Positions 11,501-44,943 of a stretch of 64,000 nt of DNA are shown piece after piece. Source of the stretch: an uncultured delta proteobacterium (lineage in GTDB: Bacteria > Myxococcota > Myxococcia > SLRQ01); contig CAVSGM010000002.1 in assembly GCA_963727485.1 (NCBI GenBank), positions 1,792,001 to 1,856,000 on the forward strand, in the 5' to 3' direction. Below the pieces are notes generated by a model that did no database searches, was not told the origin of the DNA, and saw only the letters and a list, made by a program, of their open reading frames with translations. Each line of letters starts with the position of its first letter. Positions within the stretch are counted from its first letter, which is position 1. The position numbers were made by a program, and so were the translations under genes.

Positions 11501-14500
11501 CTGGCCACCGGCGCCCTCGATCCCGTCTCCAGCCTCGAGGCCACGGTGCGCGTGGCGCGGATCCACGCCGCCGCCGGGGAGGCGCCCGCCGCCGCCGAGG
11601 CCTGGGCCCGGGTTCTCGACGCCGACCCGGACCACGCCGAGGCCCTCGGCGCCCTCGAGGCCCACCACGCCGAGCGCAAGGACTGGTCCGCCCTCGCCGC
11701 CCTCCACCGGAGCCGGGCCCAGGCGCTGGCCGCCGCCGGGGATCCCGAGGGCGCCGCCGCCGCCGAGCTCGCCCGGTCCGCCGCCCTCGAGTCCGTCGGC
11801 GACCTCGAGGCCGCCCGGGCCGCGGTGGTCGCCGCCCTCGACCGGCGCCCGGGGTGGGACGCCGCCCTCGACCGCCTCGCCGACCTCGCCCGGGCCGCCG
11901 GCGACGCCGCCGCCGAGGCCAAGGCCCTCCAGGCCCGCCTCGAGGCCGCCGAGGACACCCGGGCCCGGTCCGCCGCCGCCTGCGCCCTCGGCCGCCTCCA
12001 TCGCCGCGGCGGCGACGACCTCACCGCCGCCGCCGCCTACCGCGTGGCCCTGGTCGCCGCCGGCGAGGGTGAGGGCGAGGGGGCACCCACCTGGGCCCGG
12101 GACGCCGTCCGGGAGGGCGCCGCGGTCCTCGCCGGGGTCACCCTCTCCGCCGGGGATCCCGCAGGCGCCCTGACGCTGGTCGATCGCGCCCGCGCCGCCG
12201 GCGCCGAGGGCCCCGACCTCCTCAAGATCGAGGCCCGGGCCGCCGCCCTGGCCGGGGACGCCGCCCGGGCCCGGGACCGGTTCCAGGAGATCCTCGCCGA
12301 GCGCCCCGACGATCCGGTGGCCCTCGAGGGCCTCGCCGCCGCCGCCGCCGCCCTTGGGGACGCCGAGGGCGAGCTCGAGGCGCGCAGCCGCCGGGCCGAG
12401 GCCGCCGGCGACGCCGGGGACCAGGTGGAGTGGCACCTCGCCGGGGCCGCCCGCGCCCGGGAGCTGGACCGCGCCGAGGAGGCCGCCGCCGCCGAGGACG
12501 CCGCCTTCGACGCCGACCCCACCGACCCCCGGGCCTTCGAGGCGGTGCGCCGGCGCCTGGACGAGACCGGCGACGCCCGGGGCCTCCACGACCTCTGGCG
12601 CCGCCGCGCCCGCGCCCTCGAGGACGACCGGGCCCGGGCCGAGGCCTTCTACGAGCAGGGCGAGGTGGCCCGCCTCCGCCTCGACGAGCCCCACATGGCC
12701 GCGGAGGCCTACGAGCGGACCCTGGCGTTGGCCCCGGATCACCCGGCGGCCCTGGCCGCTCTCGCCGAGACCTTCCATGTCCTCGGGCGCCCGGATCGCG
12801 CCGAGCCCCTCTACCGACGCCTCCCCGACGGCGGCCCCGGGCTCCCGGCGTTCGTGGTCCACCACCGCCTCGGGGAGCTCGAGGCCGGCCGGGGCCGGGA
12901 CCGGGAGGCGCTGGCGGCCTTCCGGGAGGCCGCCGCCCGGAACCCCGGCTTCCTCCCGGCGTGGCAGTCGGCCCGCACCGTGGCGCGGCGCCTCGGGGAC
13001 GCCGACGCCGAGACCGCGGCCCTCGAGGGCCTCCTCGAGGCCCTCCCCGACGACGCGGGGGAGGACCGCCTGGCGGCCATCAAGAGCCTCGGCGACCTCG
13101 CCCGCGGGCGCCTCAAGACCGAGGTGGCCCTGCGCCACTACCAGGCCGCCGCCGAGCTCGACCCGGCCGACCGGGAGGTCCACGAGGCCCTCGCCGACCT
13201 CTACGGGGGCCAGGGCCGGTGGCGGGAGGCCCAGGCGGCCCTGGAGCGCCTCGCCGACGCCACCACCGAGCCCGACGCCGAGGCCGAGGTCTGGGTCCGC
13301 CTCGCCCGGCTCCACGCCAACCGCCTCGCCGACGCCGACGGGGCCCTGCCCTGCCTCGCCCGCGCCCTGGAGGCCGACCCGGACCACGTGGACGCCTGGC
13401 GCCTGCGCCTGGAGCTCGAGGCGCCCCGGGGCGACGCCGCGGCCATCGCCGACTGCGCCCGGCGCCTCGCCGAGCTCGGCCACGAGGGCGACCTCGAGCC
13501 CTTCCGCCTCGAGGTGGGCCGGGCCCTGCTCGCCACCGGGGACCCGGCCACCGCCGCCCCCTGGCTCCTCGACGCCGCCCGGGCCCGCCCCGCCGACGCG
13601 GCCCTCGCCGCCGAGGCCGCCGCCGCCCTCACCGTCTCCGGCCACCCCGAGGACGCCGCGGCCCTCCTCGCCGAACGCGCCGAGCAGTCCGGCAGCCCCG
13701 CCGACCTCCGGGAGGCCGCCGAGGCGGCCCTGGCCGCGGGGGACGCCCGGGGCTACGTGGACAAGATGTGGGCGGGCCTCGCCGACGCCGGCCTCGAGCC
13801 CAGGCTCCAGGCGCTGGCCGCCCGGGGCCTCGCCGAGGTCATGGGCCAGCGCCTCGGGGACCCGGCCGCCGCCGCCGAGGCCCTGCGCCCCTTCGCCGTC
13901 GCCCACCCCGAGGATCGCGGGCTCCTCGGCCAGCTCGCGGCCCTCCTCGAGGACGCCGGGGACCCCGCCGGGGCCCTCACCCTGTGGCTGGACATGGCCC
14001 GCCGTGCCCCCGACGACCTCCGGGCCCTGGGCCGGGCCGCGGAGCTCCTCGAGCCGCAAAGCCCCCTGCGCGCCGGGCTCCTCCGGGGCCTCACGGCCTT
14101 CGTCGAGGGCGCCGGGCCCCGGGACACCGCCGCCGACCTCTCGGGCCTCCGGGTCTCGGAGATTGGGCGGATGGAGCTCGCCGACCCGGCGGTGGCCGGC
14201 CCCCTGGGCTGGTTCCTCCGGGCGATGACCCCCTACCTCGAGCCCCTCTTCCCCGCGGACCTCCTCCGGGCCGGCGCCGACGAGAGCGCCTACCTCGACC
14301 CGGCCCTCTCCGAGCCCGCGGCCCGCCTCACCGACTTCGCCCGGGTGGTCACCGACCGGCCCCTGCGCCTCTACCGCTCCGAGCGCCTGGGCTTCGAGCT
14401 GCAGGTGGAGAACACCCGGCCGGTGAGCGTCATCGTCGGCGCCGAGGTCCTGGACGCGTCCCCGGGCCTCCGGGACCAGGTGCTGCTCCGGGCCGCCGAG

Positions 14501-36806: not shown

Positions 36807-37013
36807 GGTGCTCGCCGTCGGGCGGCGGGTGCGTCACCGTCGATGATGCGGCGACCAGGCCTCCCTCGGCACCCCTCTGAACGCGTCACGTTGGGATACG
36901 TTGGGGCGGATTGCCCCAGTGGGATACGTTGTGACGCATTCGACGGGTCGACCACCCCGCGCCGCCCGGGCACGGCTGATCGAGCCGCGAGGCGCCGTCC
37001 GCCACAGGCGCCT

Positions 37014-37878
37014 TCAGGGTCCGTCGGCGCCGGCGAGGTAGTCGGGGTAGCGCAGCTCGACGCCGAAGACCGCCTTGGCCTTGGCGTTCGTCACCCGCTT
37101 GGAGCCCAGGAGCGTCGGCGACGGGGCCTCGCTGGCCGGGGCCACCTCCGGCGCCGGGAGCCCGAGGCGCCCGGCGAGGAAGGTCGCCACCTCCCGGAGG
37201 GACGCGGGCCGGTCGTCGGCGAGGTTGTAGATCCCCGAGGCGTCGGGGTCGGCGGCGAGGGCGCGGGCGAGGGTGGCGACGATGTCGTCGACGTGGATCC
37301 GGTTGAGGAGGTTCTCGCCCCCGCCAAAGAGACGCACCCGGCCGGCGCGCAGGCGCCCCTCGAGCCCCCGGCCCCGGCCGTAGATCGCCGCCAGCCGCAG
37401 GACGATGCCGGTGGCCCCGAGGCTGCGCGCCCCCTCGAGGAACACGGTCTCCGCGTCGAGGCGGGCGGCGGCGCGATCGGGCCCGGGGTCCACGGGGCTC
37501 TCCTCGGTGACCTCGCCGCCGTCGCGCTCGGCGTAGACCCCGGTGGTGGACAGGTAGATGAGCGCCCGGGGCGCGGCGGCCGGCGACGACGTCGAGGACC
37601 GCCCGGGCCCCGGCGTCCCGGCGCGGGTCCGGGCCCACCGGGGGCACGGTGTGCACCACCACCGCCCCCTCGGGGCAGATATCGCCGAGGCCCTCCGTCT
37701 CGGGAAGTGCACACACCGCGACCTCGACGCCCCGACCGGCGAGCTCCTCGGCCCGGGCGGGATCGCGGAGGGTGCCAGAGACGGCGATCCCGTGGCCCCG
37801 GAGGGTGCGCGCCAGGTGGGCGCCCACGTGGCCGAGACCGACGACGACGACGGGCGGGGGCGCGGTGGCATCGGGCAT
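37014..37878 (-). CDS. NAD-dependent epimerase/atypical SDR (YeeZ-like), frameshift near 37600
   Basis: VVVGLGHVG Rossmann motif; YLSTTGVY, LRLAAIYG, NRIHVDDI, YNLADD. Confidence 0.85.
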
Positions 37879-38003
37879 GCAGCGTCCATAGCACGGCGCC
37901 GGGCCGGTCGCACCCGGACGCACCCGGGGCCGAAAAGTTGACCGATCCCCACCCTGGGCGACGATGGACGGGCCCGGCGACCTCCGCCGGACGAGGAGGG
38001 AAC

Positions 38004-38375
38004 ATGGACGCGATCCGAACCGAGACGGCACCCGCCTCCACCGCCGTGACCTCGACCCGCAGGGCGCCGGCGAGCGCCGAGCGCCCGCCCCGGGTCCACG
38101 CCGACCTCTCCGTCGAGGTCCGCACCCGCCAGGGCCCGGTGTTCCGCCCGGTGCGCGACCTGTCCCTCACCGGGCTCTACGTGGCCGGCCTCCGGGCGCC
38201 GGTGGGCCACGAGATCCACCTGACCCTGGCGTTCCCCGACGAGGCGCCCCTGTCCCTGCGGGGCCGGGTGGTCCGCTGCGACCCGGGGACCGACGCCGGG
38301 GTGGCCATGGTCTTCAGCCGCATCGGCTGGGACGACATGCTCACCATCGCCCGGTACCTGGCCCCCCGGATCTGA
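38004..38375 (+). CDS. Stand-alone PilZ-domain protein
   Basis: ERPPRV (RxxxR-like), RDLSLTGLYV (DxSxxG), LRGRVVR, GVAMVF. Confidence 0.85.
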   Translation: MDAIRTETAPASTAVTSTRRAPASAERPPRVHADLSVEVRTRQGPVFRPVRDLSLTGLYVAGLRAPVGHEIHLTLAFPDEAPLSLRGRVVRCDPGTDAGVAMVFSRIGWDDMLTIARYLAPRI

Positions 38376-38396
38376 GTGGGGTCATAGCCGACCCAT

Positions 38397-38426
38397 TTTA
38401 CAGTCAGACTGTGAATTCTCTACACT
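38397..38426 (+). promoter_or_regulatory. Sigma70-like promoter with an overlapping palindromic operator candidate
   Basis: TTTACA (38397-38402), 18 nt, TACACT (38421-38426); inverted repeat ACAGTC-A-GACTGT at 38400-38412; AT-rich island in very GC-rich DNA. Confidence 0.6.
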
Positions 38427-38468
38427 GACGGACGTCCTCGCCGGGGAGACACGCCAGGACCCCGACCC

Positions 38469-38909
38469 TTGACCGACGACCCCTCCGTACCCGAGAGCCC
38501 CCCCGCCGAGCCCACCTCGGGCCGGCGACGATTTCTCCGGGAGGGCGCGGGGATGCTGGCCCTCGGGGCCCTCGCCGTGGCGCCCGGCGGCCGCGACCGC
38601 GCCCTCGACGCCCTCCGGGGCCGGGTTCGCACCGTGCGCCTGGGCAGCGCCCGGCCCCACCCGGCGCCCGGTGTCAGCGCCCGGCGCGCCGGTGACGAGC
38701 TGGTGGTCTCCATCCCCGGCGCCGATCCCGGCGTCGCCCTCAACGAGACCGCCGCCCAGGTGTTCCTCGCCTGCGACGGCCGGCGCACCGTCGACGCCAT
38801 CGCCGCCTCGCTCTGTCGGCGCTACCGCGTGTCGCCGGCGCGGGCCCGCCGCGACGCGGGGGCGGTGGTCTCGGCGCTGACGCGCGCCGGGTGCCTCGTC
38901 CTCGGCTGA
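38469..38909 (+). CDS. PqqD-family RiPP recognition element (RRE) protein with a twin-arginine-like N-terminus
   Basis: LNETAAQVFLACDGRRTVDAIAASLCRRY..ARRDAGAVVSALTRAGCL is the PqqD pattern; N-terminal GRRRFLR followed by a hydrophobic stretch. Confidence 0.85.
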   Translation: MTDDPSVPESPPAEPTSGRRRFLREGAGMLALGALAVAPGGRDRALDALRGRVRTVRLGSARPHPAPGVSARRAGDELVVSIPGADPGVALNETAAQVFLACDGRRTVDAIAASLCRRYRVSPARARRDAGAVVSALTRAGCLVLG

Positions 38910-38936: not shown

Positions 38937-39147
38937 TCAGGGCCGGCTGGGGGCGCAGGGTCCCGACGGGCGAGCAGATCTGGGGGTGGCAGGCGTAGGG
39001 TCCGCAGCTCGAGGACGGCGCCGCCCGGGGGATGGGGATTTTGATCGACCGGATCCGAGGGCGGACGTACTTCTTGACCCCGTCGACGATCGCCTCCTCG
39101 GCGGCCTCCAGGGCCTCGTCCTCGATGTCGTTGCGGTCGTCGCTCAT
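38937..39147 (-). CDS. Candidate RiPP precursor peptide (~69 aa after one-base correction), CxP-repeat core
   Basis: MSDDRNDIEDEALEAAEEAIVDGVKKYVRPRIRSIKIPIPRAAPSSSCGPYACHPQICSPVG; dropping one G near 38963 gives PCAPSRP-TGA; starts 6 nt after the peptidase stop. Confidence 0.7.
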
Positions 39148-39153
39148 GGTCCG

Positions 39154-40863
39154 CTACCAGGCGGTGGACCAGGTCAGGCGCCAGCCCGCCGGGAACCGCT
39201 CGAGCCAGTACTCTACCACCTGCGTGGTCTCCCGGTCGCCCTGGTCGGCGGTGCGCAGGGCGTGGACCAGGACCTCGGGGTAGTTGCGGGTGCCGGTGGT
39301 GTAGACCGAGAGGATCCGGGTGTGGACGGTGGCGTCGGTGTCGGTCCGGCCGGTGGCGATCCGGGCCCGGGCGGCGTCGTCGAGGGCGTCGCAGTAGAAG
39401 CCGTCCATGGTCGCCCGGTAGGCCTCCGGGTCCCGGGCGTTCACCGCGGCGTCGGCGTCGTGGATCACCCGGGCGATGGCCGCGCGGTCGGCGTCGGGGA
39501 CCGGGGTGGGCGGCTGGGAGAGGTAGGGGGCCAGGGCGTCCTTCCAGGCGGCGCGGAAGGCGTCGAGGCCCTCCCCGACCACGTGCTGGAGCAGGTGGTC
39601 CATCGCCCGGGCCAGGGAGGGGCCGTCGCTGACCTGGTCGCCGAGGGTGTCGACCAGGGTCCACCCGTGCCAGGTCACCGCGGCGGCGCGCCACAGCTCC
39701 AGGAGCTTCGCCCGGCCGTAGCGGGAGACGAAGAGGCTCACGAACGAGCCGTCCCGACCGTAGTTGCGGCCATAGACGTCGCTGTCCTCGAAACCGTAGC
39801 GGTAGGTCGCGTTCTCCTCGCCGGCGACCAGGTCGTCGGCGTAGGCCTGGTGGCGGTCCCGGCCCGAGCCGTCGAGGTAGACCGCGAGCCCCTCGTCGAG
39901 AAACGGCAGGTGGTCGGTCTTCCCGTCGACGGCGGTGGCGAGGACGTGGGTGAGCTCGTGGCCGAAGTGGTGGCGCTCGTAGCTGTCGTCGCCTTGGAGG
40001 TAGAGGACGTCGACCTCGTGCTTCCAGGGGAAGGCCTGGCCCACGCTGTAGCCGTGGGCGAAGGCGGCCATGCGGTTGGGCGAGAGGACCACGGTGATCC
40101 GCGGGCGGGTGGTCAGGCCCAGGAACTCGCTGATGCGGTCGTAGGCCCGCTGGCGATCCTGGAAGATGGGGTCGAGGTCGGCGGCGGCGGCGGTGCCCGG
40201 GAGGTAGCGCAGGTCGAAGGGGCCGCGCTCGGTGTCCTGGTAGGCGACGCCCGCGTAGGTGGGGACGTCGGCGCAGAGGACCGGCGCGATCGGGCCGCCC
40301 GCGTCGCCGCCGGCGCCGGGGCCGTTGTCGTTGCCCGCGGTGCCGGGGCCGTTGTCGCTGCCCGCGGCCCCCTGGCCGTTGCCGTTGCCGTTGCCGAGGC
40401 CGCTGTCCGGGCCGGCGCCGGTGCCGCCGGTGTCGCCGTTGCCTCCGGCGGTGCCGTTGCCTCCGGCGGTGCCGTTGCCTCCGGCGGTGCCGCCCGCGCT
40501 GCCGCTGGCGCTCCCGCCCTGGTTGGCGCTTCCGTCGTCCTCGCTGCCGGTGCGCGGCCCGGCGCCCGGGACGCCGTCGAGGCCTCGAAGGTGCAGGCCC
40601 CCCGGGAGGCCCGGACGGACGGCGCGCCCAGGCCGGGTCCGCCAGCCGGGGAGGGCGCCGGGGCGGGTGGCCAGGGACGCCACCGGGACGCGCAGCGCGC
40701 TCGGCGTCGCCACCGGGCGGGTCGCCGCCGCCGGGGCGCCGCCGGCCGTCGCCGGGCTGGCGGCGGTCGTGGTCGGGGGCGCATCGGTGGGCGGCGCCGC
40801 CGGGGCGGTGCAGGCGGCGGCGAGGAGGACGAAGGCGAGGGACGGGGGGGCGAGTCGGCGCAT
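39154..40863 (-). CDS. Lipoprotein with a gluzincin (peptidase MA-like) zinc metalloprotease domain
   Basis: Lipobox LAAAC; Gly/Asn-rich linker; HELTH followed by FLDEGLAVY (HExxH + ExxA). Confidence 0.8.
   Translation of the reverse strand: MRRLAPPSLAFVLLAAACTAPAAPPTDAPPTTTAASPATAGGAPAAATRPVATPSALRVPVASLATRPGALPGWRTRPGRAVRPGLPGGLHLRGLDGVPGAGPRTGSEDDGSANQGGSASGSAGGTAGGNGTAGGNGTAGGNGDTGGTGAGPDSGLGNGNGNGQGAAGSDNGPGTAGNDNGPGAGGDAGGPIAPVLCADVPTYAGVAYQDTERGPFDLRYLPGTAAAADLDPIFQDRQRAYDRISEFLGLTTRPRITVVLSPNRMAAFAHGYSVGQAFPWKHEVDVLYLQGDDSYERHHFGHELTHVLATAVDGKTDHLPFLDEGLAVYLDGSGRDRHQAYADDLVAGEENATYRYGFEDSDVYGRNYGRDGSFVSLFVSRYGRAKLLELWRAAAVTWHGWTLVDTLGDQVSDGPSLARAMDHLLQHVVGEGLDAFRAAWKDALAPYLSQPPTPVPDADRAAIARVIHDADAAVNARDPEAYRATMDGFYCDALDDAARARIATGRTDTDATVHTRILSVYTTGTRNYPEVLVHALRTADQGDRETTQVVEYWLERFPAGWRLTWSTAW
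40435..40488. repeat. 18-bp tandem repeat x3 encoding TAGGNG in the peptidase linker
   Basis: gccgttgcctccggcggt repeated. Confidence 0.85.
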
Positions 40864-41039: not shown

Positions 41040-43302
41040 ATGGCCCGGGCTTCCCTTCCCATCCTCGGCACGGGGGCGGTGGCACCAGCGGCGCCCCGGC
41101 CCCTGCGGTTCGCCTGGCTGGAGCTGACCCACCGCTGCAACCTCCAGTGCGACCAGTGCTACACCAACAGCACTCCCCGCACGCCCCTGGGGAGCCTGCC
41201 CACCGAGCGCTGGCACCGCCTCCTCGAGGAGATCGTCGCCGCCGGGGGGAAGACGGTGCAGTTCACCGGCGGTGAGGCCACCACCCACCCGGACCTGGTC
41301 CCGCTCCTCGAGCACGCCGCCGGGCTCGGCCTCGCCGTCGAGCTGTTCACCAACGCCACCCGCCTCGACGACGCCCTGATTCGAGCGCCTCGCCACCCTC
41401 GGGGTGGCGGTGGCCACCTCGCTGCACAGCCACGAGGCGGCGGCCCACGACGCCATCACCCGGACCCCCGGGAGCCACGCCCTCACCGTCGACGCCATCC
41501 GCAGGCTGGTCGCCCGGGGGATCGAGGTCCGGGTCGCCGGGGTGCTCATGGCCGGCAACGCCGACCACGGCCCGGCCACCGAGGCCCTCATCCGGCGCCT
41601 CGGCGTCCTCACCCCGTTCAAGACCGACCCGGTGCGCCCCACCGGCCGGGGGCGCAAGGCCGAGTCCCCGGCCGAGGTGGCCAGCTGCACCGTGTGCGAC
41701 GACGGGACCTTCCAGGCGATGCACACCGATCCCGCGGGCCCGGCGCCGTCGACCTGCTGGGACGGGCGCATCGCCGTGAGCCCCCGGGGCGAGGTCTACC
41801 CCTGCATCTTCAGCCGCGGGGCGAAGGTGGGCAGCGTCGCCGACACCCCGCTCCCCCAGGTCCTCGCCCGCGGGCCCCTCGCCGGGCTCTGGGCCCTGAC
41901 CACCGACGACGTCCCCGAGTGCCGGGACTGCGACCGGAAGGGCGTGTGCTTCGACTGCCGGGCCCTGCCCCTCACCGCCCTCGGCGACGTCACCGCCAAG
42001 AACCCCCGGTGCGACTACGTGCCCCCGGCCAGGCGCCCCAGGCGCCCGCGCCCCGAGGCGGCGAGGGTGCGCCCGGGTCTCCTGGGCCGGGACCTGGCCG
42101 GCGAGCGGCTCCTGGTCGACGCCGCCACCGCCCGGCTCCACCGCCTCGACGCCGGGGCCGCGGCGATCCTCGACGCCCTGGCCGCCGGCGCGTCGGAGGC
42201 CGCCCTCGCCGCGGGCCTCACCCGGCGCTTCGGCCTCGCCCCGGACGAGGCGGCCTCGGAGATCGCCACCGTCGCCGACGGCCTCTGGGACGCGGGGCTC
42301 CTGGTGGACCCCGCGGGCCGGGACGTCACCGGGGACCGGGTCCTCGCCGGCGTCGCCCCGCCACCGGTGCCCGACGCCCTGGGCCTGGCCGCCGGCGCCG
42401 CGGACCCGGCGGCCGGGCGCGCCGTCGCGGACACCCCCGCCGCCGAGGTCCCCCGGCGCGCTCTCCTCGGCCTCCTCGGGCGCACCGTGGCCCTCGCCGC
42501 CGACGCCGCCGCCTGGGCCGAGCTCGAGGCCCTGCTGGCCCCCCTGGCCGCCGACCCCGGGGCCACCCCCGAGGCCACCATCTCGGTGGTCTCCCGCCGC
42601 TCCGCCCCCCACCTCGGGGCGCTCCACCACGTCCTGGTCGACGGCCGGCAGGTCCGGGCGGTGCGGACCCCCGGCGCCCTGCGCTCGGCGGTCGAGGAGG
42701 TGCTGTGCACCCTCGCCGCCGAGGGCCAGGGCGACCTGCGCCTCCACGCGGCGGTCCTGGTGGGCCCCGCCGGGGCGGTGCTCATCCCCGGGGCCTCTGG
42801 GGCGGGCAAGAGCCTGCTCGCCCTCGCCGGGGTCGCCGCGGGCCTCGGCTACGGCACCGACGAGGCGGCGCGGATCCCGCTGGTCGGCGAGGTGGTGGTC
42901 GACGCGCTCCCCAAGCCGGTGACCGTGAAGGCCGCGGGCCGGCCCTGGGTCCCCCCGGCGCTGACGGCCCGGTGGATCCCCCCGGACGTCGCCGACCCCG
43001 ACGACTACGCCTGGGTGCCGCTGGTCGGCAGCGCCCCGGCGCCGGTGGTGGCGGTGGTCCTCCCGGATTGCTCCGGCGCCACCGAGGGCCTCGCCCCCTG
43101 CGAGGCCGGCGACGCCGCCGAGGCCCTCCTCGCCGGGGTCTTCAACCTCGGCGGGGCGGGGGTCGCCGCGGGCCTCGAGGCGGTGTGCCGCCTGGTCGAG
43201 GGCGCGGCCTGCCTCCGCCTCGACACCCGGGACCTCCCGGCCGCCGGGGCGCGCCTCGCCGAGCGCCTCGGCCAAGGCGCGGCCCGGGGCACCGGCACCT
43301 GA
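41040..43302 (+). CDS. Radical SAM/SPASM peptide maturase fused to a PqqD/RRE domain and an HPr-kinase-like P-loop domain; frameshift at ~41380
   Basis: [86 protein letters not shown]; kinase LHAAVL..GASGAGKS..GTDE; removing one T at 41380 restores IERLATLGVAVATS. Confidence 0.88.
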
Positions 43303-43315
43303 GCTTCGCCGGGCG

Positions 43316-44943
<1,628 letters not shown>

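Follow-up and report, generated by a model that had tools for sequence, protein, structure and literature searches.

The window, by which we mean the whole 64,000-nucleotide stretch of DNA analysed, contains a gene cluster in the order PilZ gene, Tat-RRE, convergent precursor and peptidase genes, and a divergent gene for a radical SAM (rSAM)-SPASM-RRE-HprK-like fusion (Table 1). The same order was found in two of the four other genomes of the family. The leader of the precursor carries a YxxPxI motif and has neither a twin-arginine (Tat) motif nor a hydrophobic h-region. The maturase carries its own internal, signal-less RRE, and tatC is present in the window genome.

Table 1. Features of the Tat-RRE cluster (positions in the window) and of two related precursor genes (positions in their loci)
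Feature	Position	Strand	Remarks
Tat-RRE: stand-alone PqqD/RRE, N-terminal twin-arginine signal-like region	38469..38909	+	146 aa, TTG start
AGGA, likely ribosome-binding site, 9 nt 5' of TTG	38456..38459	+	sequence; kept in L016
G-R-R-R-F-L twin-arginine motif, residues 18-23 of Tat-RRE	38520..38537	+	
Uncharged h-region-like stretch, residues 26-41, contains rival ATG 38553	38544..38591	+	
Basic, moderately amphipathic linker helix (predicted), residues 41-58	38589..38642	+	AF2 model and sequence
RRE fold, residues 63-145	38655..38903	+	Pfam, AF2, Foldseek
Precursor peptide, about 69 aa, YVRPRI leader motif, Cys-x-Pro (CxP) repeat core, no export signal	38937..39147	-	
Predicted lipoprotein zinc peptidase, HELTH...EG, Gly/Asn-rich linker	39154..40863	-	
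Radical SAM-SPASM + internal RRE + HprK-like kinase fusion	41040..43302	+	
CxP precursors, leader overlays twin-arginine signal and YxxPxI RRE motif	L122:9570-9785 (G114); L123:11148-11414 (G247)		

The first-pass annotation had described the cluster as lacking an exporter and its peptidase as a lipoprotein; the first point was upheld, and the second agrees with a predicted signal. Local phmmer searches of window positions 30001-52000, with one query each, gave no match for an ABC transporter, an S24/S26 peptidase or a nucleotidyltransferase. The peptidase, recognizable by its HELTH motif, begins with MRRL...LLAAAC, which we take by the lipobox rule to be a lipoprotein signal; its match to Pfam Peptidase_MA_2 is below the cut-off (E 9e-5). 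The peptidase gene is present in genomes G000 and G002, the G002 copy being 42% identical to that of the window. Its Gly/Asn-rich repeat linker (GGNGTA units, 40300-40560, minus strand) shows an 18-base gap in one short-read contig. The PilZ-domain gene (about 38000-38375, plus strand, the end of ORF 36843-38375) lies directly upstream of Tat-RRE in G000, G002 and G003 and on the contig of homologue P0002, an adjacency that may be plain synteny or may point to c-di-GMP-linked control.

The assembly comprises 14 contigs and contains one-base errors. Extra bases at 38965 and 41380 are absent from short-read contigs (from two and three runs, respectively) and therefore account for a run-on precursor, whose stop is hidden, and for a split rSAM-RRE-kinase gene. 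Other ORFs in the window also look frameshifted, such as the PutA-like 43678-44943. Over 38300-38589 a short-read contig showed 0 differences from the window, which rules out an assembly artefact at the N-terminus of Tat-RRE.

RREs are normally treated as cytoplasmic adaptors. Proteins exported by Tat carry an N-terminal R-R-x-F-L consensus, and the TatFind threshold is at least 13 uncharged residues after the motif. Tat-RRE, whose residues 17-38 read SGRRRFLREGAGMLALGALAVA, has a motif of the R-R-x-F-L type, followed by an h-region of 16 uncharged residues with a best 12-residue Kyte-Doolittle mean (KD12) of 2.14, then a helix and finally the PqqD/RRE fold. Ala-x-Ala is present only within the h-region, and the segment on its C-terminal side is very basic. 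Pfam PqqD (PF05402) matched residues 89-142 above its cut-off (E 1.7e-12). The AF2 model, built on an 18-row alignment, has a pLDDT of 83 overall and 92-98 in the RRE part, with helices at residues 20-34 and 41-58 and an RRE of three strands and three helices. In Foldseek, its best solved matches were discrete RREs of the same fold, the lasso B1 proteins (TfuB1-type 6jx3 and TbiB1 5v1u) and PqqD (5sxy), with E 4e-4 to 1e-3, probability 1.00 and rmsd 1.6-2.0 Å. As with these discrete RREs, a precursor with a YxxPxI leader motif adjoins; Tat-RRE differs in having about 60 more N-terminal residues, which hold the twin-arginine motif, the h-region and the linker helix. Pfam TAT_signal (PF10518) and the NCBIfam Tat-signal models gave no match to the window protein, and Pfam TAT_signal gave sub-cut-off matches in only 4 of 22 sequences scanned. 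The protein also fails to reach the cut-off of any NCBIfam PqqD equivalog and gave no match at E 0.1 to TIGR04248 (ScmD, cut-off score 100). A twin-arginine signal-like N-terminus ahead of a PqqD fold, as first annotated, is thus confirmed by ORF reading, Pfam, AF2 and Foldseek. Judged from its sequence, the gene at 38469-38909 encodes a stand-alone RRE whose N-terminus resembles a twin-arginine signal and is conserved.

This reading depends on the start codon, and the first-pass annotation had itself named a true start downstream of the RR motif as one of the points at which it could fail. A GGAGG lies 8 nt upstream of the rival start, ATG 38553, from which the public gene call reads a 118-aa protein that has lost the motif; at 75% GC, moreover, Arg-rich text is common. 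The RR stretch would then be untranslated or incidental, and the protein an ordinary cytoplasmic PqqD. Against this, the Met is replaced by Ile in P0001 and by Leu in P0002, the two nearest homologues (77% and 62%), both of which keep GRRRFL. Relative to the 77% homologue, in which the TTG start and AGGA site are preserved (L016), GRRRFL has undergone three synonymous and 0 replacement changes and the preceding 16 codons (2-17) ten replacements. Low-GC homologues have an ATG start 3-10 codons before RR. ATG 38553 is accordingly unlikely as the main start and was rejected, and a protein of ordinary PqqD type is highly improbable. Since gene callers can clip the tag, as the public call does, the Tat-RRE family is likely under-counted.

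To describe the family, 1.84 billion representatives were searched with a Tat-RRE profile. Among the 150 matches listed, 13 reach the first 25 positions of the query, two of which belong to the query alignment; of the other 11, ten show RR/KR-x-[FLV]-hydrophobic plus an h-region (one of them with KR). P0010 and P0040 also have the motif, though their profile match begins later. Two short PqqDs flagged as Tat-like by a regular expression (P0071 and P0115) were rejected by eye. The named members come from Deltaproteobacteria, Syntrophales and one 'Pseudomonadota' MAG. A search of 401 genomes of Desulfobacterota, the phylum of Syntrophaceae, gave 13 matches at E 1e-14, and the motif is present in all six full-length ones. 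Homologues from both Myxococcota and Desulfobacterota show RRx[FL]. Conservation of RRxFL had been proposed as a check at first annotation, and the motif proved conserved. A search of 401 Myxococcota genomes with the A2 alignment found 116 with a PqqD match; the motif occurred in 0 of the 27 N-termini read (L033-L059) and only in family f1. In the ESM Atlas, the clusters nearest to Tat-RRE are PqqD proteins of 139-147 aa (0.94; 52-76 members), and matches to the precursor stayed under 0.9.

Motif statistics were taken from 25 members picked for having the motif (P0105 was corrected by eye). Among these, 24 have RR and one KR, and the +3 residue is F in 16, L in eight and V in one. The spacing from RR to the LN motif of the RRE is 68-78 residues in 22 of 25. 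A strict A-x-A follows the h-region in 10 of 25, and a clear c-region is seen in several members (PALA|N, AFA|K, AAA|R, AEA|S). The tatC gene, the one Tat component searched for, was found in 10 of 10 Tat-RRE genomes tested, all genomes tested being of this kind.

Binding of the precursor by Tat-RRE was modelled with ESMFold2. RRE residues 40-146 with precursor residues 10-60 scored 0.44, versus 0.01 for the best control; in calibration 116 of 157 solved pairs reached the mark, as did 2 of 215 mismatched ones, and 18 of the 157 solved pairs and both mismatches reached it at 0.60 or under, the range in which our score falls. The runs share at least 86% of contacts, with a partner pLDDT of at least 48 (about 50). 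As RRE-leader complexes are among the solved structures, the score may reflect likeness, and the model offers weak support for binding of the neighbouring precursor leader by Tat-RRE.

We then compared related CxP clusters. With the G003 rSAM as query, a search of 401 Myxococcota genomes gave matches at E 1e-36 in five (G000, G002, G003, G114 and G247). A search of 296 further genomes added no CxP cluster, and a locus scan of genome contigs with the same rSAM gave no match. G114 and G247, the next-nearest rSAM matches, have no Tat-RRE. Their CxP precursors have leaders with SRRKML or RRKLL, followed by YxxPxI, by a hydrophobic stretch (KD12 1.95 and 2.12, respectively) and by AAA or AAG, and their RREs, one fused and one free, show no Tat motif. 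In the three clusters with Tat-RRE (window, G002 and G003), none of the precursors has a Tat-like motif; their KD12 is 0.41-0.66 and the stretch is broken by basic residues. Across the five clusters counted, the tag thus lies either on the precursor (2/2 without Tat-RRE) or on the RRE (3/3), never on both, which amounts to one contrast, because the three clusters with Tat-RRE belong to a single family. From these sequences, it appears that in the CxP family the chaperone bears the export tag instead of the precursor.

The Desulfobacterota Tat-RRE homologues sit in SynChlorMet-type cassettes. As in SynChlorMet (NCBIfam TIGR04248-04252), these cassettes have ScmE-like and ScmF-like rSAMs, a ScmC-like kinase, a ScmD-like PqqD and a ScmA-like Cys-repeat precursor; Tat-RRE is an extra gene without a curated model. 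The window cluster itself was rejected as SynChlorMet, having a single rSAM fused to RRE and kinase, a CxP core and Scm scores far under cut-off. Our survey covered all 36 ScmE-like matches, from 34 of the 401 genomes, and two extra Tat-RRE loci. Loci with both rSAM and kinase were counted (19 without and 6 with Tat-RRE), and 12 ScmE loci without a kinase match were left out (L091, L095, L097-L099, L102, L104, L105, L107-L109 and L115), among them several cut contigs, L105, which has an S24 peptidase, and L107, part of the split cassette of G748. In G748, Tat-RRE, precursor and nucleotidyltransferase lie on L088:2968-5239, and PqqD and two rSAMs on L107.

An S24/S26 leader peptidase was found in 18 of 19 cassettes without Tat-RRE versus one of six with it (Fisher p 0.0006, an overstated value, since the loci are phylogenetically clumped and kin are not independent). 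The sharing of kinase and transferase genes suggests perhaps one or two origins only for the Desulfobacterota Tat-RRE cassettes, a further reason why this p overstates. On an rSAM tree built by a quick method, two or three changes of the Tat label are required, at least two of them forced by well-supported branches. Short contigs (3.4 and 6.9 kb) carry two of the six Tat loci. With cleavage sites placed by eye, the leader ends in [AV]-x-A in 8/8 precursors beside Tat-RRE and in Gly in 15 of 16 others; Ala-x-Ala is a signal peptidase site (PMC6708511). An ABC transporter lies in the locus of only 7 of 19 non-Tat cassettes and in none of the remaining 12, so exporter absence does not discriminate and the lack of one in the window is weak evidence. 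A signal-less ScmD-like PqqD is present in five of six Tat cassettes (G401, G518, G573, G480 and G744), the sixth being the 3.4-kb contig. That a signal-less RRE is kept besides Tat-RRE, in fused form in the window, is as would be expected for a division of labour. The exception to the peptidase pattern is G573, where Tat-RRE lies near an S24 fusion and an ABC transporter. This contig (G573:C129, L086:3796-5116 and 13449-13682) holds two SynChlorMet-type cassettes, the one with Tat-RRE having two precursors with leader ends AYA/VYA and the other a single precursor ending in QAMG, and the S24-nucleotidyltransferase fusion and the ABC transporter lie between them.

Two further known systems are close to the proposed one. 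In the LPP system of Bacillota (LppB/LppS/LppD; Popov et al. 2026), an RRE presents the leader to a signal-peptidase-I (SpI)-like enzyme, and LPP and window clusters share an RRE of the discrete kind, a kinase that is HprK-like and a [Y/W]xxP-type leader (PMC13381572). However, an SpI-like peptidase and an MsbA-like exporter are both encoded within LPP clusters (PMC13381572), and the window has neither; no SpI-like peptidase, MsbA-like transporter or NTP transferase, the defining genes of an LPP cluster, was found in window 30001-52000. The window differs further in having an rSAM and in bearing the tag on the RRE, and the words 'twin-arginine', 'Tat' and 'signal peptide' do not occur in the main text of the LPP paper (PMC13381572). 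Hitch-hiking through Tat, in which one partner has an RR signal and the other lacks it, is described for PaoABC (PMC4273604) and for hydrogenase (cited in PMC6708511). Its known passengers are folded enzyme subunits, whereas the passenger proposed here is a modified peptide, which the carrier would hold by the leader and subsequently release.

Taken together, we consider it likely, with a probability of roughly 0.6, that Tat-RRE binds the leader of the signal-less CxP precursor and carries it through Tat by hitch-hiking. The cytoplasmic rSAM-RRE-kinase fusion would modify the core, probably by thioether cross-links and phosphorylation, after which the second RRE would take over the leader and the folded complex would be translocated by Tat. 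At the outer face the RRE, cleaved or signal-anchored, would present the leader to a protease, putatively the clustered lipoprotein peptidase in the window and elsewhere probably housekeeping signal peptidase I. The first-pass annotation had proposed carriage of the modified precursor through Tat to the periplasmic peptidase. Its first half is favoured by the five-cluster comparison; delivery to the clustered lipoprotein peptidase does not stand as a general step, because that peptidase was found neither in G003, a 98% complete genome, nor beside the Desulfobacterota Tat-RREs. By gene content, the system can do without the lipoprotein peptidase. Tat is able to turn away cargo whose tail is unstructured (PMC6708511), and such proofreading is a real obstacle that a cross-linked core may ease.

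The Tat-motif evidence would be accounted for equally well if Tat-RRE travelled empty, with a different transporter for the peptide and a periplasmic RRE that did no more than present the leader to an outside protease, in the manner of an extracytoplasmic lasso B1 or LppB. Leader cleavage in LPP and lasso systems does require RREs (PMC13381572), and in G573 an ABC transporter adjoins Tat-RRE. What makes this unlikely is that the closest relatives tag the precursor itself, the tag being absent exactly where Tat-RRE is present, and that no ABC transporter lies in the loci of the window, of G003 or of five of the six Desulfobacterota Tat loci.

We regard as quite unlikely that the N-terminus is a membrane tether, a short hydrophobic stretch with an amphipathic helix holding the RRE on the cytoplasmic face. 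A tether has no need for RR-x-F/L-hydrophobic across genomes of 40% to 75% GC with Lys almost excluded, nor does it explain the clear c-regions. It would suit the basic residues on both sides of the h-region, the near-fixed spacing of RR and LN, the 15 of 25 members in which strict A-x-A is missing and the want of a Pfam TAT_signal match in the window protein. The very basic segment after the window h-region could also hold the RRE in the cytoplasm, although Tat signals typically have a basic c-region (PMC6708511).

Carriage of the precursor through Tat, if extended beyond the window, would define a trans-signal RiPP route, in which a Tat-signal RRE binds a finished, signal-less peptide by its leader, crosses Tat and holds the peptide at the membrane for cleavage, replacing a dedicated exporter and leader peptidase. 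Such a route would operate in at least two phyla and on unrelated cores and, in the CxP family, would alternate with a Tat signal on the precursor; we hold the chances of this wider proposal to be about even. The accepted exits for RiPPs are a dedicated transporter or a signal carried by the precursor. A chaperone that lends its Tat signal would open a third way of RiPP export, would explain clusters without transporter or protease and would provide a portable leader/RRE pair for delivering modified peptides to the periplasm. In a literature search with few subscription journals, nothing on topic was found that joined RRE, PqqD or RiPP with twin-arginine or Tat, and no paper on SynChlorMet was found; supplementary tables of RRE architectures could bear on the matter. 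The parts are known, and their combination as an export route appears to be undescribed.

G003 encodes a second RR-RRE paralogue, P0010 (L018:9093-9551, G003:C15). No RiPP genes were seen within about 6 kb of it, which counts against the hitch-hiking reading. It has a shortened linker and lies between genes that, on reading the sequence, we named SpoVR-like and M23-like.
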